Source: an uncultured Gammaproteobacteria bacterium
Lineage (GTDB): Bacteria > Patescibacteriota > Microgenomatia > Levybacterales > UBA12049
Assembly: GCA_965230895.1 (NCBI GenBank)
Contig: OZ246394.1
Location: 633,316-697,315 of the forward strand
Length of the DNA stretch: 64,000 nt
Reading direction: 5' to 3'
Shown here: one piece after another, positions 3,741-41,062 of the stretch
How positions within the stretch are numbered: the stretch's first letter is position 1
How the letters are laid out: the number at the start of each line of letters is the position of its first letter
Notes under the pieces: model-generated
The model's input: only the letters and a program-made list of their open reading frames with translations
Database searches by the model: none
What the model was told of the DNA's origin: nothing
Program-made: the position numbers and the translations under genes

Positions 3741-4931
3741 ATGACACCATTCATTGTTTGGCTTAAAGATGCTGATACCCATGATACATCATCGATTGGG
3801 AAAGCAGGAAAGCATATCGCGAAACTGACACAAGCAGGCTTTCCAATCCTCCCTGGATTTATCATTACATCAAACGCATATCATACCTTTCTTAAAGAGA
3901 ATAAACTTGATGTAAAAATTAAAAAACTCCTTACCACAGTAAATACAGAGCATCCTGAATCTATTTATCAGGTTGCGAAACATATCCAAGACCTTATCGC
4001 ACAGTCCAAAATTCCTGGTGATATCGCAAAGGAAGTAGAAGATTTTTATAAAAAGTTGCGGACGGAAGCTGTTTCGATTGAAGCACATACGACAGCCAAA
4101 CCATCTCATAAAGTTGCAAAATCTAAGGCGATTGATCTTGAAAGCTTAATGCAGCATGTGAAAGAATCTTGGGGACAGCACTTTGAACCAAATTATTTTT
4201 GGAAACGTCATGAACATGGACATGATCATATAGATACAGGTATGGAAGTTATAATCCAACTTGAGATACAGCCTCAAAAAACTGGCAAGCTCCATACGGT
4301 TAATGTCCATGATCATGGCAAAGGTACGATGACAATAACGGTACATCACTCCCATGCCTCAGACAGATATACACTTTCAAAGAAAAATCTTATGCTCATC
4401 CACAGAGATTTATCCCATTATGGAAAAGCTCCAAAACTTACCTATGAAGAAATATTCTCCATTGCTACACTTGGGAAACAGATTGAAAATCAGCTCTATT
4501 TCCCGCAAGAAATTACCTGGGCAATAGATAACGATACAGTTTACATTCTCGACTCCAAACCCTTCTCTTCCCTTCCAAAAGTTAAAACAGAATCGAAGAA
4601 AAAGCTTGCTGCATCACGAGGTATTTCGATCACCAAAACCATTGGCACAGGTCCAGTCACAATCATCCATCATGACAATGATTTAGATAAAAGTGCAGAG
4701 CATATCGTCGTCATTTCTTCTGTTGCAAAATCTCATGTGAATAAACTTAAACGAGCAAAAGGATTAATAACCGAAAAAGGGAAAGTACAATCTGAGGTTT
4801 CAACATTAATCAAAGCCCTTGGAATACCAACGATCTATGGAGTGAAAGATGCAACAAAGAAATTTAAAAGCGAACATGTCATAACCATACATGCTGGAAA
4901 AGGCGAAATATATATTGGTGGACTCCATTAA
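3741..4931 (+). CDS. PEP-utilizing enzyme family protein (PEP synthase / PPDK-like); it is degenerate and may be non-catalytic.
   Basis: The N-terminus matches PPDK_N (IGKAGKHIAKL...GFPILPGFIITSNAY). The middle matches the EITWAIDNDTVYILDSKPF block. The C-terminal mobile domain is present, but the phospho-carrier TSH is replaced by QSE. There is a histidine-rich insert (HEHGHDH...HDHGKG...HHSH). Confidence 0.6.
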   Translation: MTPFIVWLKDADTHDTSSIGKAGKHIAKLTQAGFPILPGFIITSNAYHTFLKENKLDVKIKKLLTTVNTEHPESIYQVAKHIQDLIAQSKIPGDIAKEVEDFYKKLRTEAVSIEAHTTAKPSHKVAKSKAIDLESLMQHVKESWGQHFEPNYFWKRHEHGHDHIDTGMEVIIQLEIQPQKTGKLHTVNVHDHGKGTMTITVHHSHASDRYTLSKKNLMLIHRDLSHYGKAPKLTYEEIFSIATLGKQIENQLYFPQEITWAIDNDTVYILDSKPFSSLPKVKTESKKKLAASRGISITKTIGTGPVTIIHHDNDLDKSAEHIVVISSVAKSHVNKLKRAKGLITEKGKVQSEVSTLIKALGIPTIYGVKDATKKFKSEHVITIHAGKGEIYIGGLH

Positions 4932-4977
4932 ACTCTTCTTGATTCTCCAAGCTTAATTTTATATACTAAATGCTGTT

Positions 4978-5601
4978 ATGGCATACCTCGTACTTGTAAG
5001 ACACGGTGAATCAGAATGGAACGCAAAAGGACTTTGGACTGGTTGGACTGACGTGAACCTCAGTGAAAATGGACGCGAAGAAGCACGCAAAGCTGGTGAA
5101 GCACTGCATGATATTCATTTTGATTATGCGTACACTTCGGCCTTAAAACGGGCACAGCAGACACTGCAAGAGATCCAAACAGTATTAGGCACAAACCTTA
5201 TCGCCACAGAAGATAAAGCGTTAAACGAACGAAGTTATGGGGATTTTACTGGTAAGAATAAGTGGGAGGTAAAAGAACAAGTTGGCGAAGAAGAATTCCA
5301 AAGACTCCGACGAAGTTGGGATTACCCACCAGCAAATGGTGAATCACTCAAAATGGTTTATGAAAGAGTTCTTCCATATTACCAAGCGGAAATTGAGCCA
5401 AAGTTAAAAGAGGGCAAAAATGTCATTATCGCAGCGCATGGAAATAGTTTGCGAGCGTTAATTAAACACCTTGAGGGTATTTCTGATGAAGAAATTACGA
5501 AGCTTGAACTCGCAACTGGGGGATTATATGTCTATCAAATTGACGCAGAAGGTAAAGTAACTTCAAAAGAAATCCGCGGTTCAAATACGAACGCCCACTA
5601 A
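4978..5601 (+). CDS. gpmA: 2,3-bisphosphoglycerate-dependent phosphoglycerate mutase.
   Basis: LVLVRHGESEWNAKGLWTGWTDVNLSENG is the histidine phosphatase RHG motif with a dPGM-type sequence. The protein is 207 aa. Confidence 0.8.
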   Translation: MAYLVLVRHGESEWNAKGLWTGWTDVNLSENGREEARKAGEALHDIHFDYAYTSALKRAQQTLQEIQTVLGTNLIATEDKALNERSYGDFTGKNKWEVKEQVGEEEFQRLRRSWDYPPANGESLKMVYERVLPYYQAEIEPKLKEGKNVIIAAHGNSLRALIKHLEGISDEEITKLELATGGLYVYQIDAEGKVTSKEIRGSNTNAH

Positions 5602-6249
5602 TTACTTCTTCCCATTCCATTCAGCGTAAAACTCCTCAAGGAAATGTTTCATAAAGATTTCACGCTCTTTTGCAATCGTCTTGGCAGTTTTCGTGTGCAT
5701 TAAGCCACGAACTAAGAATAATTTCTCGTAAAAGTGATTTATTGTTGTCCCTTTGTGGTTTTTATATTCTTCATGCGTTTTAAACTTCTGAGGTTTTAAT
5801 GAAGGATTGTACATTTCTCTTTGTTTCAAACCCCCATATGCAAATGCTCGTCCAATACCTATTGCACCAAGCGCTTCCAGACGATCCGCGTCTTGCACGA
5901 TTTTTGCTTCAATCGTTGTAGGTTGTATGGGGTTTGATCCGCCTTTGTAGGAGATTGAACGAATATCTCGGCATAATCGTTCTATATACTCGGGCTCCAA
6001 TTGCATTTTCTGCAACCAGGCACGTTCGATAGAATTATTTGTATCTTCATGAAATTTCCAATCCGCAATATCGTGAAGTAATGCAATCATTTGAAGCGAG
6101 AATAAATCAACATCTTTTTCTGATTGCGCGATTTTCAAAGAAAGCTTCAGGACTCGTTCGACATGGAACCAATCATGCCCTGTTCCTTCACCAGACATTT
6201 TGTCCTGCACATATTGTTTTGTTTGTTTGAGGATAAGCGCTTTAGTCAT
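5602..6249 (-). CDS. HD-domain metal-dependent phosphohydrolase.
   Basis: HDWFHVERV...LLHDIAD contains an H...HD motif. The protein is 215 aa. Confidence 0.7.
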   Translation of the reverse strand: MTKALILKQTKQYVQDKMSGEGTGHDWFHVERVLKLSLKIAQSEKDVDLFSLQMIALLHDIADWKFHEDTNNSIERAWLQKMQLEPEYIERLCRDIRSISYKGGSNPIQPTTIEAKIVQDADRLEALGAIGIGRAFAYGGLKQREMYNPSLKPQKFKTHEEYKNHKGTTINHFYEKLFLVRGLMHTKTAKTIAKEREIFMKHFLEEFYAEWNGKK

Positions 6250-6956
6250 TAGAGATGAAACAGAAGAACAAATTCACCCTTTGGTTCTTTTTTCTTAAAA
6301 TAAGTAATCGCTTCAGCAATCTTTCTCCGTTTTACTTCTTCATATATTTTTGTTAGTTCCCGAGCGAAGACAACTTCAATATTTCCGAAGACTTTTTCCA
6401 TATCCTGAAGCGTTTTAATTACTTTGTGCGGCGCTTCAAACATTACGACAGTAGCGTTTACTGCATCTAGACTTGTCTTAATATTTTTAAAGTAATCCAA
6501 CCGGTGTCCAGGTTTGTGCGGCGGATAACCAACGAATGTGAACTTATCAGTTGGCAAGCCAGATGCAGTTAATGCTGTCAAAACTGATGATGCACCAGGC
6601 AATGATACAACATTTACTTTCTCTTTCAGACACTCGCGAACTAATTTAAACCCAGGATCGGAGACCGCAGGCGTTCCAGCATCTGAAACAAGCGCAACAT
6701 CCTGATCGGATTTGAGTAAACTGATAATCTCAGGAATTCTCTGCAATTCGTTTTGATCATAATATGAAATAAATCGTGGTTTCTGCTTATCTTCAGGATT
6801 GTTTGAGAATTCTTGTAAAAGCTTTTCCAGAAGCATTCCTGTTCGTCGCGTATCTTCACAGGCAATAACTTGTACAGAAAAAAGGATCTTAAGCGCACGA
6901 AGTGTAATATCTGCAAGATTTCCGATCGGTGTAGGTACAATATAAAGCGTTCCCAT
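6249..6956 (-). CDS. rsmI: 16S rRNA (cytidine1402-2'-O)-methyltransferase RsmI.
   Basis: LYIVPTPIGNLADITLRALKIL...ACEDTRRTG matches tetrapyrrole-methylase-fold RsmI. Confidence 0.8.
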   Translation of the reverse strand: MGTLYIVPTPIGNLADITLRALKILFSVQVIACEDTRRTGMLLEKLLQEFSNNPEDKQKPRFISYYDQNELQRIPEIISLLKSDQDVALVSDAGTPAVSDPGFKLVRECLKEKVNVVSLPGASSVLTALTASGLPTDKFTFVGYPPHKPGHRLDYFKNIKTSLDAVNATVVMFEAPHKVIKTLQDMEKVFGNIEVVFARELTKIYEEVKRRKIAEAITYFKKKEPKGEFVLLFHL

Positions 6957-6974
6957 AGTGGGTATTATACATTA

Positions 6975-7604
6975 TTAGAGGTATCGGCGGACTAATCCTA
7001 CCATTTTCCCTTGTATTTTTACACTATTAGGGTAAATTGGTTGCATGCTCGCATTCGCTGGTTTAAGAACGACTTTTCCACCTTCCTTGTAGAATCGTTT
7101 CAATGTTGCAAGATTATCATCAACCAGCGCTACCACAATCTCACCATTAGCGGCATCATTTACTTTCTCTATGACAACATAGTCCCCGTCCAGAATCCCG
7201 TCTTCAATCATAGACTCACCTTTTACTTGCAGTACATACGCTGTCTTTGAGCCAGTCAACATTGAAGCTGAAACTTGAAATGTCGCGTTTGGATCAACAT
7301 GTGGTTCAAGTGGTCGACCTGCTGCTATATACCCCATCAAAGGCAATTCAACAGATGGTTGTACACCCATGAAAGTAGAAATGACATTTTCATCCTTAAC
7401 CTTTAAAACTCGAGCATTCCCATCTACTTTTTGGACATATCCTTTATCGACTAAATTTCGAAGAATTACGTGGATTGTGGAGACACTTCGATGTCCCGTT
7501 GCATCTGCAATTTCGCGCAAAGTTGGCGCATATGTGTGCTTATTCTGGAATTGTACGAGGAACTCCAACACTTGTCTTTCTTTTCTGTAAAGTACTCCTG
7601 GCAT
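6975..7604 (-). CDS. lexA: LexA repressor (S24 peptidase). The ORF track extends it to 7667, but the ATG at 7604 (MPGVLYRK...) is the more likely start.
   Basis: The N-terminus is a winged HTH (TLREIADATGHRSVSTIHVILRNLVDKGYV). The C-terminus has S24 motifs (GESMIEDGILDGDYVVIEK, with a catalytic Ser-Lys dyad context). It is divergent from the HD gene and uvrB. Confidence 0.8.
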   Translation of the reverse strand: MPGVLYRKERQVLEFLVQFQNKHTYAPTLREIADATGHRSVSTIHVILRNLVDKGYVQKVDGNARVLKVKDENVISTFMGVQPSVELPLMGYIAAGRPLEPHVDPNATFQVSASMLTGSKTAYVLQVKGESMIEDGILDGDYVVIEKVNDAANGEIVVALVDDNLATLKRFYKEGGKVVLKPANASMQPIYPNSVKIQGKMVGLVRRYL

Positions 7605-16197: not shown

Positions 16198-16243
16198 GAG
16201 CGGGCGATGGGAGTCGGACCCACTGCCTTATTCTTGGTAACAG
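16198..16243. repeat. Distal att-like direct repeat: a copy of the 3' half of tRNA-Gly(CCC). 32 nt are exact, then the match degenerates.
   Basis: The sequence is identical to 22480-22511 and 40997-41028, at 16198-16229. A tRNA-3'-end-like TGGAGCGGGC fragment and a GC hairpin precede it at 16168-16195. Confidence 0.7.
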
Positions 16244-16311: not shown

Positions 16312-16833
16312 CTATAAGGACTTAATTTTAGAATTGTTAATAGCTTCTGATATCTGTCTCGATATTTCACTTATTTGGTAGTCTCTTGTAATATGAACAT
16401 GAAGCATGGGAATATTTACATCACCAAATACATTGTCTACAAGTTCATCCCGTAAGCTTCTATTCTTTTCATTATGACTTCCTCCGTCCAATTCAACAAT
16501 TAATAAAGGATTAAATGTAGCTCTATCACAAATGACAAAATCTACATGTTTCTGAGTTATTTTATTAAGCATCGGCCAATAATCTTTGTCAGACTTATCA
16601 ATCGCCATAGTTACTAAATCTGCAATTCTAACTTTTGGGCAAATATACATCTGAGGAGTCACGGCTTGAGCCAAAACATCAAAAAATCTTTTTTCTCCAT
16701 CATTAAGTAAAGAAGTACCTTTCTGTTTATATACTCTTCTCCACTTTTTTTTTGAGGTGAAATATATGATAACTCCTAGAGCAATCAATATTCCTAAAAG
16801 AATTAGTATTAGAAAAATATTATTATTTATCAT
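16312..16833 (-). CDS. DUF2726-like membrane-anchored protein (predicted PD-(D/E)xK-type nuclease fold).
   Basis: It has an N-terminal TM helix, then KRFFDVL...HVDFVICD...IVELDGGSH. It is about 70% identical to the paralog at 29330-29857. Confidence 0.6.
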   Translation of the reverse strand: MINNNIFLILILLGILIALGVIIYFTSKKKWRRVYKQKGTSLLNDGEKRFFDVLAQAVTPQMYICPKVRIADLVTMAIDKSDKDYWPMLNKITQKHVDFVICDRATFNPLLIVELDGGSHNEKNRSLRDELVDNVFGDVNIPMLHVHITRDYQISEISRQISEAINNSKIKSL

Positions 16834-22099: not shown

Positions 22100-22400
22100 T
22101 AAAGCATCTCTAGTTATATCTAAATCAATTCGATCGTCCTCATCTATTACCTTTTTAAAGGCTTGTATTGCCTTTTCAAGCACTTTATCTACTGGAGACG
22201 ACCGTTTTCAAGGGAGAGTCATTTACTGTGTCTATGAGGTCCTCAAGTACATAGTCACTGTAGTATTTATCCGTAATATCAACGCTTGTATATCGAAGTG
22301 TTCGCGAGACCAACGGCAAAGATAGTCGTCTAAGGCTTGTGTAACTTTTGACCTTGCAACATAAAGAATTACTTTTGAATTCCTTACGTGCATATTCTTT
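22100..22400 (-). pseudogene. Tyrosine integrase relic with an internal deletion. N-terminal and C-terminal segments homologous to the intact integrase at 39875-40927 are fused.
   Basis: 22335-22395 matches integrase 5' codons (GTAACTTTTGACCTTGCAACATAA). 22148-22330 matches the integrase 3' region (CATAGTCACTGTAGTATTTATC...). The ~750 nt between them is absent. Confidence 0.55.
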
Positions 22401-22470: not shown

Positions 22471-22511
22471 TTGAGCGGGCGATGGGAGTCGGACCCACTG
22501 CCTTCTCCTTG
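22471..22511. repeat. att-like direct repeat, a 41-nt exact copy of the tRNA-Gly(CCC) 3' half, forming the junction of islands A and B.
   Basis: TTGAGCGGGCGATGGGAGTCGGACCCACTGCCTTCTCCTTG is identical to 40988-41028. Confidence 0.7.
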
Positions 22512-29329: not shown

Positions 29330-29857
29330 CTAAAGGGATGCGACAGAAGTACTTTGGTTTATATTTATAGATTGAGATATAAGTTGTGATATATGATTCT
29401 GTTGATATGTTTGTGCAACTGCAACATGAAGCATTGGGATCTCTGCATCTTTGAATACATTATCCACTAAAATGTCTCTGAGAGATCTGCTGTTCTCGTT
29501 ATGACTTCCCCCATCCAGTTCAACAATAAGCAGTGGCGCAAATGTTGCTTTATTGCAGATGACAAAGTCCACATGTTTTTGGGAGATTTGATTGAACTTC
29601 GGCCAAAATTCTTTATCCGTCCTATCAATCGCCATCTCAACCAAATCAGCAATCCTGACCTTAGGACATACATACATGTCTGGTGTCACAGAATGCTCAA
29701 GAACATCAAAGAATCTCTTCTCCCCATCACTTAGTAAGTACGGCCCTTTCTTCTTATATACCCTCCTCCATTTCTTTTGGGAACGGAAGTAAATGAATGC
29801 GCTAAGCACAAGTAGTATTAATATAGAGCCTGCGATATACAGAATATTATTCTCCAT
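29330..29857 (-). CDS. DUF2726-like membrane-anchored protein (paralog of 16312-16833).
   Basis: It has the same architecture and is about 70% identical (KKWRRVYK.KG..LL.DGEKRFFDVL...HVDFVIC...LLIVELDGGSHNE). Confidence 0.6.
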   Translation of the reverse strand: MENNILYIAGSILILLVLSAFIYFRSQKKWRRVYKKKGPYLLSDGEKRFFDVLEHSVTPDMYVCPKVRIADLVEMAIDRTDKEFWPKFNQISQKHVDFVICNKATFAPLLIVELDGGSHNENSRSLRDILVDNVFKDAEIPMLHVAVAQTYQQNHISQLISQSININQSTSVASL

Positions 29858-30127: not shown

Positions 30128-31387
30128 TTACACCCAGCGTGATCTGTCATAGAAGTGTTCAATTATATGTTTACGTAGTGATTCTGAATTGAAGTTTTTG
30201 AACCCCAAGTCCCAACAAATTGTAGAAGAAAGAGCTACAAAAAAATTTAATAACTCATCCTTATCTAGCAAGACTCGAGTATCCGTATTAATTTCCCAAT
30301 AGTATCGAGATAGCAGTATATCTACACTACCATGATAGCCGCCATCTTCCCCAGGAAATAGTGTTACACCTTGAGCTCCACTTAATTCGACTTTACCTTT
30401 TACTACACCTTGATATTCATACCGCTTGTAAAAGTTGTGTGCTGCCTGAAATATTACGAAAATCTTGCCAAGAACATAATGCATATTCATCTGCTCTCTA
30501 TTGTCATTACCTATGTTCTTTAATGTTGATATATAAAAAAGTAACCCTTGAGCATAAATTTGTTCGTTAGTAAAAGTATTTCCATTGCGATCATAATTAA
30601 ATGTTGTTATTCCTTCGGGAATTGCTTTGTGTTCTGTATGTGGAAAGTCTGTATAAGTATGACCTGTACTTCGATATTCAATTATTTCTTCTGACAAATT
30701 ACTAGGGAGTACCAATTGATTATGGGGATAATGAGGTATTATCGAAACTGACAGTAATCTTTTTGGTGTTGAGAAGTGTTCACGATACACATATTCATTA
30801 CCCGCGCGAGTTGTTGCAATACTTATTTGTTTATTTGCAAGATATAAACAAGCATCTAATACATCTTTTGCTCTTGCATAATAATATTCTCTTTTTTCAT
30901 TGGATTGTTCAGTTTTCTTATAAAGTAGATTTGCATAATCTGGTGAAGCAATATCTATAAGTTCTTTACTTATATTATTTGTCCTTATCCAAACTGTTCC
31001 ATTATTGTGTATATAATATGGCGTTTCGTCTCCCTCAAATATACGTATTAGAATGAATCTTTTTCCGTCTTTCTCATTTGTTGGATGTATCTTGTATTTA
31101 GGAAGAGAATCAACACTATTAGCCCATTGTGTTATTCTTTCAATATCTTGAGCATTTGTATTTATTCCTTTGTATTCAATTGGCAATCCTGTTTTTTTAT
31201 CTTCTTTAACCCCTATTATTATGACTCCCCCACGAGTATTGGAAAAAGCTGCAAAATGTTTCGACAAGCTTCCGGTAGTTAAATCTTCTTTATAATCAAG
31301 TTGGACACCTTCAGGTTCATTTGTTTTACAAAAAGCCACTACATCTTCAAATGTAAATGAGGTTATTGGTTGAGTGAGTAATTTCAT
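30128..31387 (-). CDS. AlbA_2 (Schlafen-like, divergent-AAA) domain protein with a 300-aa uncharacterized C-terminal region.
   Basis: The N-terminus FEDVVAFCKTNEPEGVQLDYKEDL...LSKHFAAFSNTRGGVIIIGVKED fits the AlbA_2 consensus (E..lefK...l.k.i.AFaNt.GG.l.iGV.d). Confidence 0.5.
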   Translation of the reverse strand: MKLLTQPITSFTFEDVVAFCKTNEPEGVQLDYKEDLTTGSLSKHFAAFSNTRGGVIIIGVKEDKKTGLPIEYKGINTNAQDIERITQWANSVDSLPKYKIHPTNEKDGKRFILIRIFEGDETPYYIHNNGTVWIRTNNISKELIDIASPDYANLLYKKTEQSNEKREYYYARAKDVLDACLYLANKQISIATTRAGNEYVYREHFSTPKRLLSVSIIPHYPHNQLVLPSNLSEEIIEYRSTGHTYTDFPHTEHKAIPEGITTFNYDRNGNTFTNEQIYAQGLLFYISTLKNIGNDNREQMNMHYVLGKIFVIFQAAHNFYKRYEYQGVVKGKVELSGAQGVTLFPGEDGGYHGSVDILLSRYYWEINTDTRVLLDKDELLNFFVALSSTICWDLGFKNFNSESLRKHIIEHFYDRSRWV

Positions 31388-36142: not shown

Positions 36143-36190
36143 GCCTGCTACAGATCAACATAGTCTAATCAAATCTGATAAAATATATTA

Positions 36191-37027
36191 ATGGCACTTC
36201 CTAAATTTGATGATCTTTATACGCCACTCATGCAGGCACTACAACAACTAGGTGGTTCAGGTTCGACAACAGAAATTGAAGAGAAAGTAGCAGAGGTACT
36301 GAACTTATCAGAGGAAGAAATAAATGAAATACACACTGGCAATAGGACAGAGCTTGATTATCGACTCGCATGGGCAAGAACGTATCTTAAATATTACGGA
36401 TTGATTGAAAATTCATCAAAAGGAATATGGTCACTTACCTCAAAAGGGAAAGATATTACAGCCATTGATAAAGACGTCATCAATAAATTTGTTCGACAAC
36501 GAAAGGATGGACTAAAGGCATTACAGCAAAAAAAAGATATAACAGCAGATACAGAAGAGAGCCTCGAATTATGGAAAGATGAATTATTAAACGAGATCAA
36601 ACAAAAAAGTCCAGAAGCATTTGAAAGGCTTTGCCAAAGGATACTTCGTGAGGCAGGTTTTATTCAAGTAACTGTTACTGGAAGATCAGGAGATGGCGGC
36701 ATTGATGGCACAGGTATTGTCAGGATCGGTGGTTTTCTTAGCTTTAGGGTTATCTTCCAATGCAAACGTTATCAAGGAAGTGTGTCTTCTCAACAGATAC
36801 GGGAGTTTAAAGGAACTATGGTCGGAAGAGCTGACAAAGGATTGTTCATGACAACAGGCACATTTACCAGAGATGCAAAATTGGAAGCATCCCGTGATGG
36901 TGCACCACCAGTTGATTTAGTTGATGGTGAGTTGCTAGCAGAAAAGATGAAAGAATTAAGATTGGGAGTAAACGTGACGACCAAAGAGGTAGTTTCAGTG
37001 AATAAAGAATGGTTAAAAAACTTCTAA
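36191..37027 (+). CDS. Mrr-like type IV (modification-dependent) restriction endonuclease.
   Basis: It has an N-terminal Mrr_N winged helix and a C-terminal Mrr_cat PD-(D/E)xK core (GRSGDGGIDGTGIV...IFQCKRY). Confidence 0.7.
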   Translation: MALPKFDDLYTPLMQALQQLGGSGSTTEIEEKVAEVLNLSEEEINEIHTGNRTELDYRLAWARTYLKYYGLIENSSKGIWSLTSKGKDITAIDKDVINKFVRQRKDGLKALQQKKDITADTEESLELWKDELLNEIKQKSPEAFERLCQRILREAGFIQVTVTGRSGDGGIDGTGIVRIGGFLSFRVIFQCKRYQGSVSSQQIREFKGTMVGRADKGLFMTTGTFTRDAKLEASRDGAPPVDLVDGELLAEKMKELRLGVNVTTKEVVSVNKEWLKNF

Positions 37028-37689
37028 ACTGTATATTTTAAGACACCTTTTACTTCTCCCTCTATATGAAAATTTCTATCCGCGGTAAATGCAGGTTGCT
37101 CAGGATTGATTGAGATTAAATTATAAGTAACATCATTGGGAGACTTATAAATTTTTTGTATTTTTTTTATGAGTACTTCACCGTTATTGACACAGACGGC
37201 TATCTGGTTATTGTCAACATCAGATGCTTTTTTAGCAATTACTAAATCACCCGAATTTATACGAGGCTTCATAGATGTTCCTCTTGCCTTTACAATAAAT
37301 GCTTGAGCAGCAGGAAAGCTAAGTAACCGTGATGAAACAGGGATGCGATCTATTGGATTACCGTCTAAAACCCCTCCATTGGGTCCACATTGTGCCATAC
37401 CATATAGATTTAAGTATGTAATCTGTTTATCCGGGCTATCAGCAAGGATTTGGTAATCCTTAGGATTGTTGGGGTTACGTTTCAAGTAACCTTTTCTTTC
37501 CAGTTGTATCAAATGGTGTTGTACAACGCTTGGCGATTTTGCATCAATAGCATCCATAAGCTCACGGATTGATAAAGGTTCATTTTGGTTATCGCGCAAT
37601 AAATTTATTAATTTTTGTTGTGCTGGATGGGGTAAATCGTTCATACCTTCTTTAATTCTAAGAAGATATGAATAGAAAGTCAAGAACAC
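37024..37689 (-). CDS. LexA/CI-like repressor (winged HTH plus S24 peptidase), a second LexA paralog.
   Basis: The N-terminus is SIRELMDAIDAKSPSVVQHHLIQLERKGYLKR. The C-terminus has GTSMKPRINSGDLVIAKK S24 motifs. It is transcribed divergently from the TM-cyclase operon. Confidence 0.7.
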   Translation of the reverse strand: MFLTFYSYLLRIKEGMNDLPHPAQQKLINLLRDNQNEPLSIRELMDAIDAKSPSVVQHHLIQLERKGYLKRNPNNPKDYQILADSPDKQITYLNLYGMAQCGPNGGVLDGNPIDRIPVSSRLLSFPAAQAFIVKARGTSMKPRINSGDLVIAKKASDVDNNQIAVCVNNGEVLIKKIQKIYKSPNDVTYNLISINPEQPAFTADRNFHIEGEVKGVLKYTV

Positions 37690-37757
37690 CTTGCTCTGTA
37701 CTATATTTTATGGTACAGTGATATTGTTTGTTTTATCCTATCGAACATGAATAAACA

Positions 37758-38258
37758 ATGCAAAGAAAAATAGACATAGCTGAGAAAAATCTTAACAGAG
37801 TACATGAGTGGATAAGAGGCATTGACCAAAAAGTTAGTATTTTTCTTGCCTTACAAGGTGTAATTTTAACATTACTCTTCACCAAAATCTTATCTGCGGT
37901 AGTTGCAATCTTTACGACAACTGCTGTTTCTTTCTGGGATAGTCTATTTATTTTATGGGCGATCCTAGCCTTAGGGTTTGGAGTATTTGAGTCCCTCCTC
38001 GCAATTTTTCCCAGAATAAATAATAACGCAAAATCTCATCTTTATTTTGGGGGGATTAAGAATTTAACATTATCAGAATACAAAAATGGTATGAAAGATA
38101 TTACCGATGAAGACTATTTTGAGGAATTATGTGAACAGGTTCACAGAAACTCTGTAATCGCAGTTGCAAAGGCAGAACATTTTCAAAAGGCTATTATAAT
38201 TTTCTTATTAGGTATCGGATTGTTAATAGTAAGTTATATTTCTTTCAAATTTTTTTAA
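37758..38258 (+). CDS. Small 4-TM membrane protein, first gene of the TM-cyclase-cyclase operon.
   Basis: The 166-aa protein has three TM helices between residues 25-100, a ~60-aa soluble segment, and a C-terminal TM helix. Its stop lies 2 nt from the next start. Confidence 0.5.
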   Translation: MQRKIDIAEKNLNRVHEWIRGIDQKVSIFLALQGVILTLLFTKILSAVVAIFTTTAVSFWDSLFILWAILALGFGVFESLLAIFPRINNNAKSHLYFGGIKNLTLSEYKNGMKDITDEDYFEELCEQVHRNSVIAVAKAEHFQKAIIIFLLGIGLLIVSYISFKFF

Positions 38259-38259
38259 T

Positions 38260-38982
38260 ATGCCAACAAATCAAAACTTAATTGATGATACAAACGATTT
38301 TTTCGAAGGAGACTATTCCATAACACAAGGTACAGCAGTGCCTGACACCGAAGACATCGCTTTAGGTAACGTGGGGCGTGAGATGGAGCTTGCTATGCTA
38401 TTTATTGATATAAAAGAGTCAACAAAAATAGTTAACAGTTTTCGTCGTCAAACTGCGGCAAAAATGTATAAATCTTTCCTTAGTGGTATAACCAGAATTG
38501 CTCGGTCAAATGGTGGTTATGTTAGGAGCTTCAATGGTGATGGCGTTCTCGTTGTTTTCGATGGTGGACACAAATGTAATCATGCGGTAAAAGCAGCTTT
38601 GCAAATGAAATATTTCTGTAAGGAAATCTTAAAGAAAAAAGTAGATGCATACTTGAAAGCGCACTCAATTGATGTTGATCTAAATTTTAGCTTCGGAATA
38701 GGAATTCACACAGGAAAAGTTCTAATTGTTCGTGGAGGAATAAGAGGAGACAAGAATAATGATCTTGTCTGGGTAGGAAACGCAACCAATTACGCTGTGA
38801 AACTTTCTAACTTAGCTACGACACTGCATAACATATATATTTCTTATGACGTTTATTCCTTGTTAGAAGATGCCCAAAAATATAATAATTCTACCGAAAA
38901 AGAGAATATGTGGACAAAGCTCGATCTCGATGCATACAGCTTTTATGTTTACAAAACCAGCTACCAGTGGGGGCTTGGATAA
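38260..38982 (+). CDS. Class III nucleotidyl cyclase (CHD, adenylate/guanylate-cyclase fold) domain protein, paralog 1.
   Basis: It matches the CHD consensus at MLFIDIKESTKI (FxDIxGFT metal site 1), YVRSFNGDGVLVVF (GD metal site 2), GIGIHTGKVLIVRGGIRG, and DLVWVGNATNYAVKL (transition-state Asn; Lys in place of the usual Arg). Confidence 0.65.
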   Translation: MPTNQNLIDDTNDFFEGDYSITQGTAVPDTEDIALGNVGREMELAMLFIDIKESTKIVNSFRRQTAAKMYKSFLSGITRIARSNGGYVRSFNGDGVLVVFDGGHKCNHAVKAALQMKYFCKEILKKKVDAYLKAHSIDVDLNFSFGIGIHTGKVLIVRGGIRGDKNNDLVWVGNATNYAVKLSNLATTLHNIYISYDVYSLLEDAQKYNNSTEKENMWTKLDLDAYSFYVYKTSYQWGLG

Positions 38983-38988
38983 ATAACT

Positions 38989-39735
38989 ATGTCTCGACAT
39001 GCAGAAATAACTCAAGATACAAATACAATTTTTGATACTACCTTTACTGTAACGAAAGGGTTAGTGGTTCCTACTGTTGCTGATCTTACTTTTGATAACG
39101 TAGCAAAAGACATTCCAGCTACTATGCTTTTTATTGATATTAAAGGCTCAACACATATCGTAAATGCTGTACAAAGAGCAACAGCCGCAAAAATGTATAA
39201 AGCATTTTTAAAAGGTGTGACAAAGGTTGCACGAGCCAATAGCGGCGATGTAAGAAGTTATAATGGAGATGGTGTCCTTGTAGTATTTGCAGGTGTAGGA
39301 AAGTCCAATAATGCAGTGAGAGCAGCAATGGAAATGAAATATTTTTTTCAGCAAATACTAACGCCGCGATTAAACAGATACAAGGTCAATAACCAACAGT
39401 TACAGAATATAAAATTTGATTTTGGAATAGGTCTAGATATAGGAGACATTTTGGTTATAAAAGCCGGGATTGGTGGAGAGAATAATAGAGATTTGGTATG
39501 GGTCGGTAGGGCTACCAATCATGCAGTAAAACTAGCTGAACAATCGAATGGAGAAAACCATATTCATATTTCGCAAGGAGTTTATCATGAACTTACAGTA
39601 GATAACTTGCGTTTTGTTAACAATAGAACATTTACAATACTGAAAACGCCAATTTGGACACAGACGCTTCCATTAATAACCGCTTTTTCATTAGGCAGCG
39701 TATATACAACAACTTATCATATCCCCTTAAAATAG
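38989..39735 (+). CDS. Class III nucleotidyl cyclase domain protein, paralog 2.
   Basis: It matches at MLFIDIKGSTHI, VRSYNGDGVLVVF, GIGLDIGDILVIKAGIGG, and DLVWVGRATNHAVKL. It is about 45-50% identical to paralog 1. There is a 6-nt intergenic gap. Confidence 0.65.
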   Translation: MSRHAEITQDTNTIFDTTFTVTKGLVVPTVADLTFDNVAKDIPATMLFIDIKGSTHIVNAVQRATAAKMYKAFLKGVTKVARANSGDVRSYNGDGVLVVFAGVGKSNNAVRAAMEMKYFFQQILTPRLNRYKVNNQQLQNIKFDFGIGLDIGDILVIKAGIGGENNRDLVWVGRATNHAVKLAEQSNGENHIHISQGVYHELTVDNLRFVNNRTFTILKTPIWTQTLPLITAFSLGSVYTTTYHIPLK

Positions 39736-39874
39736 AATTCACTTATCATAATTGGTACTGCTGCAATGGTTGATACACTCTGGAAAATAGGAGTCATAAG
39801 TGTTCCATTCTGAGCGGAATGTATTCCCATGATACGATTTATGGACCTGTCCGAATGGATATTGTTTGCAGTTC

Positions 39875-40927
39875 TTAATCTATAATTGCTTTGATTTCTG
39901 TATTCCCATTCGTATCTTTCTTTATTCTTATACTTATTCTTTCATCATTACCTATGGACCTTTTGAAAGCCTCTATGCCCTTTTCAATCACTTGATCGGT
40001 AGGTAATGCTCTTTTTATGAGTGGAGAGTCGTTCACGGTCTCTACAAGGTCATCCAGCACATAGTCACTATAGTATTTATCTGTGATAGTTACACTTGAG
40101 TGTCTTAAAGTCCGAGATACAAGCTGCAAAGGATTACGCCTTCTCAATCGGGAAAGGCTATAAATATCACGCAGCTTATGGCAGGTTAATTTAGAAGGAA
40201 TTCCTAATTTTCTTCTACCATCAGCCAAATTTTTGTTGCATGTCTTCTCGGTAGTATTGAAAACTCGTTTGGATTTAACACGAGCACGCATTTCTTCAAT
40301 CATATCTTCGGGAATTGGGAGAGGAGTAATTTTACCGCCTTTGGATCGGACGAAGAATTGAGGTTGGTCATCAAAAGGAGAAAGATCTGCTCCTTTTAAA
40401 CCAATTGCTTCAGATATACGTAATCCTGTACGCAATATGAACTGCAAACAAAGCCTTGTCTCACCTTTAATTTTTATGCTTCTTGATCTGTCACCCGGAC
40501 CAGGAGTTGTTCCTGCAATAATACACTTTTCAGCTTCTAATTCACTAGGTAATATGAGAGGATCACGTACGACTTTTGGTTTAACTAATTTCTGCGCAAA
40601 ATTAGTTTCAATATATTCCCGATCATAAAGGAAAGCAACAAATGCACGAAGGCTTTTTATTATACTTACTTTACTACTTGGCTTATTCCAGCCATTACGG
40701 TACATAAAAAGTGAATACTGACGACAGGTTTCGAATGTAAGTGGTCTACCATCAAGAAATGGTATGAGTTTATGAAGGATATCTCTTTTGTTTCGGACAG
40801 TTTTGGGATTTAGTCCCTTTTCTGCGGAATAATTGATGATGTAATCATCGTATGCTTGTTGTAACTTTTGACCTTGCAACATAAGAAATCCTTTTGATTT
40901 CTTATGCGCGGAGTATTGTTCTCGCAC
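39875..40927 (-). CDS. int: Tyrosine-type site-specific integrase.
   Basis: The 350-aa protein has catalytic RHR-Y context (GLRISEAIGL; CHKLRDIYS; RHSSVTITDKYY). It is adjacent to the tRNA-Gly target. Confidence 0.8.
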   Translation of the reverse strand: MREQYSAHKKSKGFLMLQGQKLQQAYDDYIINYSAEKGLNPKTVRNKRDILHKLIPFLDGRPLTFETCRQYSLFMYRNGWNKPSSKVSIIKSLRAFVAFLYDREYIETNFAQKLVKPKVVRDPLILPSELEAEKCIIAGTTPGPGDRSRSIKIKGETRLCLQFILRTGLRISEAIGLKGADLSPFDDQPQFFVRSKGGKITPLPIPEDMIEEMRARVKSKRVFNTTEKTCNKNLADGRRKLGIPSKLTCHKLRDIYSLSRLRRRNPLQLVSRTLRHSSVTITDKYYSDYVLDDLVETVNDSPLIKRALPTDQVIEKGIEAFKRSIGNDERISIRIKKDTNGNTEIKAIID

Positions 40928-40990
40928 TACCTGTCAATTCAGGCTACATAAGTGTATATCCTATTTACTCTAAATAATTAATTTAGTTTG

Positions 40991-41062
40991 AGCGGGCGAT
41001 GGGAGTCGGACCCACTGCCTTCTCCTTGGGAAGGAGACATTCTACCGGTGAACTACGCCCGC
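40991..41062 (-). tRNA. tRNA-Gly (anticodon CCC).
   Basis: The reverse complement folds as a cloverleaf: acceptor GCGGGCG/CGCCCGC, anticodon arm TCTCC-TTCCCAA-GGAGA, T arm GTGGG-TCCGACT-CCCAT. CCA is not encoded. Its 3' half is the att repeat. Confidence 0.8.

Follow-up and report, generated by a model that had tools for sequence, protein, structure and literature searches.

The three-gene locus studied here lies in a 64,000-nucleotide stretch of DNA (the window) and encodes a small membrane protein followed by two class III nucleotidyl cyclases. Is it a new kind of cyclic-nucleotide system, and why would it carry two cyclases? A first-pass annotation, made from the sequence alone, had proposed an undescribed variant of Pycsar built on an obligate cyclase heterodimer. 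It had correctly described three co-directional open reading frames (ORFs). Of the two intergenic gaps it gave, 2 and 6 nt, the second stood, but an ORF check of the window showed that the first, between PycTM and C1, is 1 nt. The features of the locus and its surroundings are collected in Table 1.

Table 1. Features of the Pycsar locus and the surrounding island, in window coordinates
Feature	Position	Strand	Remarks
attL, exact 41-nt copy	22471..22511	.	Distal boundary of the 18.5-kb island
Mrr-type (type IV) restriction endonuclease	36191..37027	+	Pfam Mrr_N 5.3e-23, Mrr_cat 8e-30; PADLOC mREase_IV 3.2e-31
LexA-like self-cleaving repressor (LexA_DNA_bind + Peptidase_S24)	37024..37689	-	Pfam 1.1e-17, 7.1e-12; divergent from the operon
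Candidate operator palindrome CTGTACTATAtttTATGGTACAG	37696..37718	.	Divergent promoter region; 10-nt arms, 90% complementary
PycTM effector	37758..38258	+	166 aa; predicted to have three TM helices and helical cytosolic segments
PycC cyclase 1 (C1)	38260..38982	+	240 aa; mainstream type of the subfamily
PycC cyclase 2 (C2)	38989..39735	+	248 aa; distinct clade, own C-terminal tail
Tyrosine integrase of the island	39875..40927	-	Pfam Phage_integrase 2.1e-12
attR, 41-nt repeat	40988..41028	.	Covers the 3' half of tRNA-Gly(CCC)
tRNA-Gly(CCC)	40990-41062	-	Adjoins the integrase

We searched both cyclases against profile libraries, as had been suggested. C1 matched the PADLOC PycC model PDLC02367 at 2.4e-75 and C2 matched PADLOC PycC at 3.7e-65, and both scored above the gathering threshold of Pfam Guanylate_cyc (2.7e-10 and 1.4e-5, respectively). 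In a PDB sequence search, the top match of each was 7R65, the cyclase BcPycC (C1, 3.5e-32 over residues 12 to 238; C2, 4e-25). The AF2 model of C2 (pLDDT 90.6) also had 7R65 as its top Foldseek match (E = 7.5e-22; TM 0.80/0.86), which speaks against the non-cyclase fold that would have undone the first-pass reading. The class III signatures reported for these two proteins of ~240 aa are present as FIDIK(E/G)ST, NGDG, GIGxxxG, and ATN(Y/H)AVKL. The paralogs, described as about half identical, are 45% identical to each other; this value and the conservation of the C1-C2 pair between lineages led us to reject a recent duplication, as had been argued. C1 has more than 100 homologs at 53 to 73% identity, and C2 falls in a clade (P0122 to P0130) with 53 to 74% identity and a distinct, conserved C-terminal tail.

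The membrane protein proved to be PycTM. It scored 52.7 bits against Pfam PF18967, above the gathering cutoff of 27.2 (6.4e-14), and matched the PADLOC PycTM model PDLC02364 over residues 3 to 162 of 166 (1.6e-35). Its length had been read correctly, but not its four TM helices. Hydropathy gave three hydrophobic blocks (about residues 26 to 59, 62 to 87, and 139 to 166), and the AF2 model (pLDDT 77.8) gave three helices (2 to 53, 59 to 83, and 117 to 165). A 3-TM hexameric effector has been described (bioRxiv 10.64898/2026.08.12.744502), and with three predicted helices the protein fits that "3TM" family description. The alignment behind the model was shallow because only 6 relatives were found in a word-indexed protein search, and the model gave no meaningful Foldseek match in a PDB copy that contains neither a PycTM nor a PucTM structure.

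Pycsar with a PycTM effector was reportedly described by Tal et al. in 2021. The locus studied here is an ordinary member of this anti-phage family, consisting of a PycTM effector and PycC cyclases. Both paralogs are PycC-lineage class III enzymes with an intact catalytic set (two metal Asp, a transition-state Asn, and phosphate-binding basic residues), and an effector of the PycTM/PycTIR type adjoins them in the same operon. The matches in Pfam, PADLOC, and the PDB bear out the first-pass suggestion of an anti-phage system like Pycsar, based on cyclic nucleotides. They do not bear out an undescribed architecture without a cNMP-binding effector, since PycTM is the usual Pycsar effector and the order TM then cyclase is typical. 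This order has been termed "a typical Pycsar system" (PMC13069673) and was seen at a majority of the 62 related loci in our genomic comparison. A CBASS reading was rejected, there being no CD-NTase. Pycsar (PycTM plus 2x PycC), in place of a new system, is the appropriate annotation, and the value of this assignment is mostly corrective. Two different cyclases sharing one effector is a less common feature, already noted and unstudied: multi-cyclase Pycsar-1 loci have been mentioned previously (bioRxiv 10.64898/2026.08.12.744502).

We then compared the active sites. D50, R89, D94, N177, and K181 were retained in C1 and C2 and were invariant in alignments A1 and A3. The first-pass annotation had recommended asking which protomer keeps the metal-binding Asp and the base-specifying residues; we saw no asymmetry, the two being alike. 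At the base-selecting positions, C1, C2, and the whole subfamily carry F48, N92, and G95, and with identical residues there the two enzymes probably make the same signal. This F/N/G combination matches no characterized PycC: BcPycC has Y/D/R, AnPycC F/K/F, and EaPycC F/R/Q (compare PMC11224242, from which the PycC clade definitions were also taken). The Y50/D94/R97 pocket of clade B PycC is absent from C1, C2, and the whole subfamily but present in two other loci (L042 and L046). C2 has GIGG instead of GIRG and so lacks the Arg or Lys that marks GI(R/K)G; GIGG was also seen in solo C2-type cyclases. The Lys found in place of a conserved Arg had been taken as a hint of unusual chemistry. BcPycC (AANYAAKL) and AnPycC also carry this Lys, which makes it the family norm. 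By analogy, cUMP or cCMP would be the most likely product of C1 and C2; they may instead make a purine nucleotide, namely cGMP as in Pucsar.

Two cyclases were present at 12 of the 62 related loci. The tandem order TM-C1-C2 recurred at L064, L067, L071, and L080, representing three further distinct lineages and a close relative of the window, and at the tandem loci the C1 and C2 trees (neighbor joining, without support values) matched in topology. Independent two-cyclase layouts were found at L042, L046, and L086 and at 10 loci ordered C'-TM-C. Each type also stood alone: a C2-type enzyme was the only cyclase beside PycTM in at least four other contigs (L063, L066, L069, and L072), and a solo C1-type cyclase was found at L078, with the proviso that many neighborhoods come from short metagenomic contigs and some of the "solo" loci may represent remnants undergoing decay. 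A metagenome scan based on patterns specific to C2 contributed just 8 more loci, most of them duplicates of others in the set. C1 and C2 belong to two old sister clades. We regard them as independently competent enzymes, each probably homodimeric, because each clade also occurs alone with PycTM elsewhere. With two sensors and one shared effector, phage sensing would be widened or backed up.

The first-pass annotation had read the pair as an obligate C1:C2 heterodimer with asymmetric active sites. Such a dimer would resemble mammalian AC C1/C2 or fused clade A PycC, and neither subunit would be active without the other. The degree of divergence between genes only 6 nt apart and the retention of the pair in at least four lineages with matching tree topology speak for it, and the codivergence of the C1-tandem clade with C2 is what a heterodimer would also produce. 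Clade A PycC does consist of two fused cyclase domains (PMC11224242), and the missing Arg/Lys in the GIGG motif of C2 could be read the same way. However, complementary catalytic degeneration between the subunits was not seen, both being complete, nor was their co-occurrence constant. Cyclases of both types were found solo, including C2-type enzymes with GIGG beside PycTM, which argues against an obligate asymmetric heterodimer, and PycC enzymes with a single domain are homodimeric where characterized (PMC11224242; bioRxiv 10.64898/2026.08.12.744502). We consider such an obligate pair very unlikely; C1 and C2 may nonetheless act as facultative heterodimers or as a relay. In a relay, one cyclase would sense phage and its product or activity would stimulate the second, amplifying the cNMP before PycTM fires. 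A preprint raises this possibility for Pycsar-1 loci with several cyclases (bioRxiv 10.64898/2026.08.12.744502), and the conserved tail of the C2 clade could serve as a regulatory surface, but Pfam recognized no cNMP-binding domain in C1 or C2, both types occur in solo operons, and the shared base-selecting residues give no hint of two signals. Amplification of this kind also strikes us as quite improbable.

One cyclase might simply be a dispensable duplicate that is heading for loss and has not yet decayed. Solo derivatives of both types nest inside tandem clades, suggesting repeated loss of one copy. Yet neither ORF is disrupted and no catalytic residue has been lost, the two clades diverged long ago, and the pair persists in lineages whose C1 is only 61 to 73% identical to that of the window, leaving redundancy an unlikely explanation. 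Finally, class III cyclases are common signaling enzymes and no phenotype is known for the locus, as might be expected of a housekeeping, membrane-coupled second-messenger module with no role in defense. We rejected this reading, which we find scarcely credible, on the partner, the mobile island, and the neighbors. PycTM belongs to a defense effector family, att sites bound the island in which the operon lies, with Mrr and an integrase as its neighbors, and the cassette is found in differing genomic contexts. When the neighborhoods of homologs were inspected, as had been advised, PycTM partners and defense genes were found beside them, the relatives adjoining SIR2, type ISP restriction-modification, Mrr, AlbA_2, resolvases, and CapH/CapP-like regulators.

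The mobile setting that the first-pass annotation had described, a tRNA-integrated island with the operon at its integrase-proximal end and next to Mrr, was confirmed by the att repeats, the integrase, and the Mrr_N and Mrr_cat domains. Exact 41-nt direct repeats delimit the island, in the rest of which PADLOC found no further defense systems. An additional copy of 21 nt is present at 16198 to 16218. Positions 36171 to 39741 of the window shared 84% nucleotide identity with positions 1168 to 4743 of L080, where the flanks are different, which points to joint mobility of Mrr, the repressor, and the Pycsar genes. On this sequence evidence they are a 3.57-kb cassette that is also found elsewhere and that sits here at the integrase end of the 18.5-kb tRNA-Gly island.

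The divergent gene upstream of the operon, taken earlier for a LexA-like S24 gene, was confirmed as such by Pfam. Gene callers put its start probably at the ATG at 37644, giving a protein of 206 aa. It combines a winged-helix DNA-binding domain with an S24 domain, and both the Ser/Lys dyad and the (A/C)-G cleavage site are present; relative to E. coli LexA (1JHF), the Ser lies in GTSMKP, the Lys in LIKKI, and C-G occupies the A84-G85 position. S24 homologs were also found upstream of Pycsar at L003, L008, L014, L016, L017, L022, and L069. This repressor is a candidate regulator that probably controls expression of the operon. The palindrome between them would be its operator. Its arms are conserved in L080, and it is the sole match to CTGTAC-N11-GTACAG in the window, a statistically weak result in that 8 of 100 shuffles also gave a match. 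It is not a known LexA box.

By homology to characterized Pycsar systems, phage infection would cause a PycC dimer to turn NTP into a 3',5'-cyclic mononucleotide. The cyclic nucleotide would activate the small 3-TM PycTM, which would oligomerize and compromise the membrane, with growth arrest or death of the infected cell as the outcome (abortive infection). C1 and C2 would feed one cNMP signal to the shared PycTM. The LexA-like repressor, bound at the 23-bp palindrome, would hold transcription down until DNA damage led to its self-cleavage and released the operon. We think it highly likely that this account as a whole (a Pycsar system with two competent PycC enzymes, one signal, one PycTM, repressor control, and a mobile cassette) is the best explanation of the locus. 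A more specific version is possible, and we put it forward only tentatively: C1 and C2 would be non-redundant sensors with different triggers acting on one PycTM (or a heterodimer or relay), and would share a self-contained 3.6-kb mobile defense cassette with Mrr and a LexA-like repressor that is cleavable upon DNA damage. If it were true, a natural pair of diverged PycC enzymes with the same output would offer a handle on the sensing surface.

Among known systems, the regulator invites comparison with CapH/CapP and CapW/BrxR, which respond to DNA damage, regulate immune operons (PMC13373217), and likewise lie directly upstream. Two relatives of the locus (L063 and L079) have an HTH_3 plus Peptidase_M78 pair at a CapH/CapP-like position. 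Unlike these, the window regulator is a single-protein LexA/S24 self-cleaving repressor whose role we infer, and the recurring LexA-like neighbor may represent a third class of DNA-damage-linked immune-operon regulator beside CapW and CapH/CapP. Pucsar, the cGMP-producing sister branch with a PucTM hexamer, has by its description the same small 3-TM effector type and a dimeric cyclase, but its guanine-reading Glu, four residues before the second metal Asp (E118 of PfPucC), is Ser90 in C1 and C2. Clade A PycC (PaPycC, PDB 6YII) also brings two cyclase modules to each effector, in its case as fused domains, whereas C1 and C2 are separate genes with complete catalytic sets, each type also occurring alone. 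BcPycC, the Burkholderia cepacia cUMP synthase of clade B, is the top sequence match of both paralogs and the fold match of C2 and shares with them the N-terminal helix, the C-terminal extension, and the N..A.K motif. It differs in that its pyrimidine-restricting Y50, D94, and R97 are replaced by the F48, N92, and G95 of C1 and C2, and the C2 model is only 28% identical to it (Foldseek).

The closest likeness is to Pycsar with PycTM (the "Pycsar-1" subclade; bioRxiv 10.64898/2026.08.12.744502), in which a PycTM gene likewise lies directly upstream of a stand-alone PycC of ~240 aa. Full-length matches to the PADLOC and Pfam models and a mobile or defense-island setting are common to both. Two-cyclase operons are frequent in the subfamily, the genomic relatives being largely candidate-phyla-radiation genomes, and with each type also found solo they provide naturally occurring material for studies of PycC sensing. 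The window locus departs from Pycsar-1 in having two PycC genes of different clades, not one.

The 166-aa protein at the head of the operon matched Pfam PF18967, "PycTM, Pycsar effector protein," at 52.7 bits (cut-off, 27.2), and the PADLOC PycTM models covered it end to end (1.6e-35). The first and second cyclases, C1 and C2, both passed the Guanylate_cyc Pfam threshold and were matched at full length by the PADLOC PycC models (2.4e-75 and 3.7e-65, respectively). A PDB sequence search returned BcPycC (7R65) as the best solved relative of both (C1, 3.5e-32; C2, 4e-25), and 7R65 was also the top superposition for an AF2 model of C2 (pLDDT 90.6; Foldseek E 7.5e-22; TM 0.80/0.86), followed by 8JSZ, the Anabaena uridylate cyclase. 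Profile search and, for C2, predicted fold thus bear out the class III cyclases of the first-pass annotation. A PycTM gene followed directly by PycC has been called "a typical Pycsar system" (PMC13069673), and this order was dominant among 62 related loci drawn from species-representative genomes, with many Patescibacteria/CPR among them. Because of the profile matches, the likeness to 7R65, and this typical layout, we assign the locus as a predicted Pycsar system with a PycTM effector. A new architecture had been proposed for want of a cNMP-binding effector domain, a premise that fails for the PycTM effector class; the two-cyclase feature had already been noted earlier (bioRxiv 10.64898/2026.08.12.744502) and is not new. 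The PF18967 and PADLOC PycTM matches ruled out the small protein as an orphan partner.

The three genes are co-directional, as first annotated. The 6-nt C1/C2 gap stands, and the PycTM/C1 gap, given as 2 nt, was computed as 1 nt. Apart from that nucleotide, the helix count is the only factual deviation from the earlier observations: hydropathy and an AF2 model (pLDDT 77.8) give PycTM three membrane helices, not four.

Features of the Pycsar locus and the surrounding island (window positions)
Feature	Position	Strand	Basis or remark
att, 21-nt core	16198-16218		third copy
DUF2726 paralog	16312-16833	-	no PADLOC match
30-nt remnant	22340-22369		resembles 40860-40889, integrase-gene 5' end
41-nt exact direct repeat	22471-22511; 40988-41028		covers 3' half of tRNA
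DUF2726 paralog	29330-29857	-	no PADLOC match
SLFN_AlbA_2 protein	30128-31387	-	
Cys/His-rich ORF, 197 aa	34264-34857	-	no Pfam match
Truncated HK97-type capsid gene, 145 aa	34927-35364	-	profile positions 102-245 of 280
Mrr_N + Mrr_cat endonuclease	36191-37027	+	Pfam
LexA_DNA_bind + Peptidase_S24 protein	37024-37689	-	Pfam
23-bp palindrome	37696-37718		between divergent genes
PycTM, 166 aa	37758-38258	+	Pfam, PADLOC
PycC C1, 240 aa	38260-38982	+	Pfam, PADLOC, PDB sequence match
PycC C2, 248 aa	38989-39735	+	Pfam, PADLOC, PDB sequence match, AF2/Foldseek
Tyrosine integrase	39875-40927	-	adjoins tRNA-Gly(CCC)
tRNA-Gly(CCC)	40990-41062		

C1 and C2 are 45% identical, in line with the "about half" first reported. 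C1 is a mainstream subfamily member (53-73% identity to >100 homologues), and C2 falls in a separate clade (homologues P0122-P0130; 53-74% identity, 250-254 aa) whose members share a conserved C-terminal tail of their own and have GIGG for GI(R/K)G. Both keep the metal aspartates D50 and D94, R89, the transition-state N177, and K181. The lysine in place of arginine had been read as a hint of non-canonical chemistry; the same N..A.K lysine occurs in BcPycC and AnPycC and is the family norm. The base-selecting Y50/D94/R97 of BcPycC, a clade B cUMP synthase (residue roles from PMC11224242 and bioRxiv 10.64898/2026.08.12.744502), correspond to F48/N92/G95 in both C1 and C2. Sequence does not assign the product: F/N/G is the set of no characterised clade, be it B (Y/D/R, cUMP), D (F/K/F, cUMP), or E (F/R/Q, cCMP) (PMC11224242). 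Where PfPucC has a guanine-reading Glu, C1 and C2 have Ser (bioRxiv 10.64898/2026.08.12.744502).

By homology, infection would activate PycC, an NTP would be cyclised, and the cNMP would then activate PycTM; a related PucTM assembles into a six-fold cylinder around a central channel and has an abortive-infection phenotype (bioRxiv 10.64898/2026.08.12.744502). Since their base-selecting residues are identical, it is quite possible, at a little under an even chance, that C1 and C2 make the same signal, giving a single effector parallel or backup sensors within this Pycsar frame. A relay, with one cyclase feeding the other, seems improbable. We consider a C1:C2 heterodimer just as doubtful, and the obligate asymmetric form first proposed is made unlikely by the full catalytic sets in both proteins and by their relatives: C2-type proteins are the sole cyclase beside PycTM at four related loci (L063, L066, L069/70, and L072), and a solo C1-type, nested inside the "tandem" C1 clade, occurs at L078. 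Each type thus appears competent alone, which argues against obligate pairing; facultative heterodimers may form.

The TM-C1-C2 trio recurs at L064/65, L067/68, L071, and L080. NJ trees of these tandem operons branch alike for C1 and C2, with solo operons nested among them. Most simply, two Pycsar cyclase lineages would have been joined long ago to a single effector, with one or the other then lost repeatedly. Two cyclases were found at 12 of the 62 loci, and other two-cyclase layouts have several independent origins. Brevibacterium aurantiacum (L042) and an Acidobacteriaceae MAG (L046) each have a BcPycC-like pair in tandem; in the second L046 cyclase (6753-7463), Ser replaces the transition-state Asn (APSFAAKL), making it, unlike either member of the window pair, a possible genuinely degenerate subunit. 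A more distant relative (L086, 1607-3596) has the reverse order, C-C-TM. At ten loci a distant cyclase, with a clade-D-like F/K/F-type signature in eight, lies upstream of PycTM-PycC, and five of the ten have S24 homologues upstream. L003, L008, L014, L016, and L022 (about 3800-6800 each) share a four-gene layout of S24 LexA-like protein, distant cyclase, PycTM, and PycC, another two-cyclase Pycsar kind recurring in Patescibacteria and related MAGs; the distant cyclase has the clade-D-like F/K/F signature in all except L003 (SFNGDG-type).

The integrase, tRNA-Gly, repeats, and Mrr gene agree with the tRNA-integrated island first annotated, with the operon at its integrase end beside Mrr. The 41-nt repeat delimits an integrated island of 18.5 kb; the third att copy therefore means that islands are stacked at tRNA-Gly, with at least two integrated segments. 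The 30-nt remnant is found a little to the left of the middle att copy, where there is no integrase. The island also carries a resolvase, the truncated capsid gene, SLFN_AlbA_2, DUF2726, and metabolic-looking genes, with no further PADLOC matches in its remainder. The capsid fragment and the adjoining Cys/His-rich ORF look like prophage remnants. The outermost att copy is followed directly on its right by one of the DUF2726 paralogs.

Between a point shortly upstream of Mrr and one shortly past C2 (36171-39741), the window is 84% identical in nucleotide sequence to L080 (1168-4743), with sharp block boundaries and different, unrelated flanks. Mrr, the LexA-like repressor, PycTM, PycC1, and PycC2 therefore constitute a mobile 3.57-kb defence cassette of five genes. 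In L066 an SLFN_AlbA_2 protein (6213-7370), together with Mrr, also lies directly upstream of a solo PycTM-C2 operon, a recurring neighbourhood.

The divergent LexA/CI-like S24 repressor was likewise recovered; an alignment to E. coli LexA places a C-G at the cleavage position and shows that the Ser/Lys dyad is present. The palindrome overlaps the expected site of the operon promoter, and L080 has kept its arms; its pattern also matched in 8 of 100 shuffles, and as a candidate operator it is suggestive only. An S24 homologue closely precedes Pycsar in L003, L008, L014, L016, L017, L022, and L069. In L063 (6128-6947) and L079 (118-941), the position of the LexA-like gene, divergently upstream of PycTM-PycC, is held by an HTH_3 + Peptidase_M78 pair resembling CapH/CapP, a type that regulates immune operons including Pycsar (PMC13373217).
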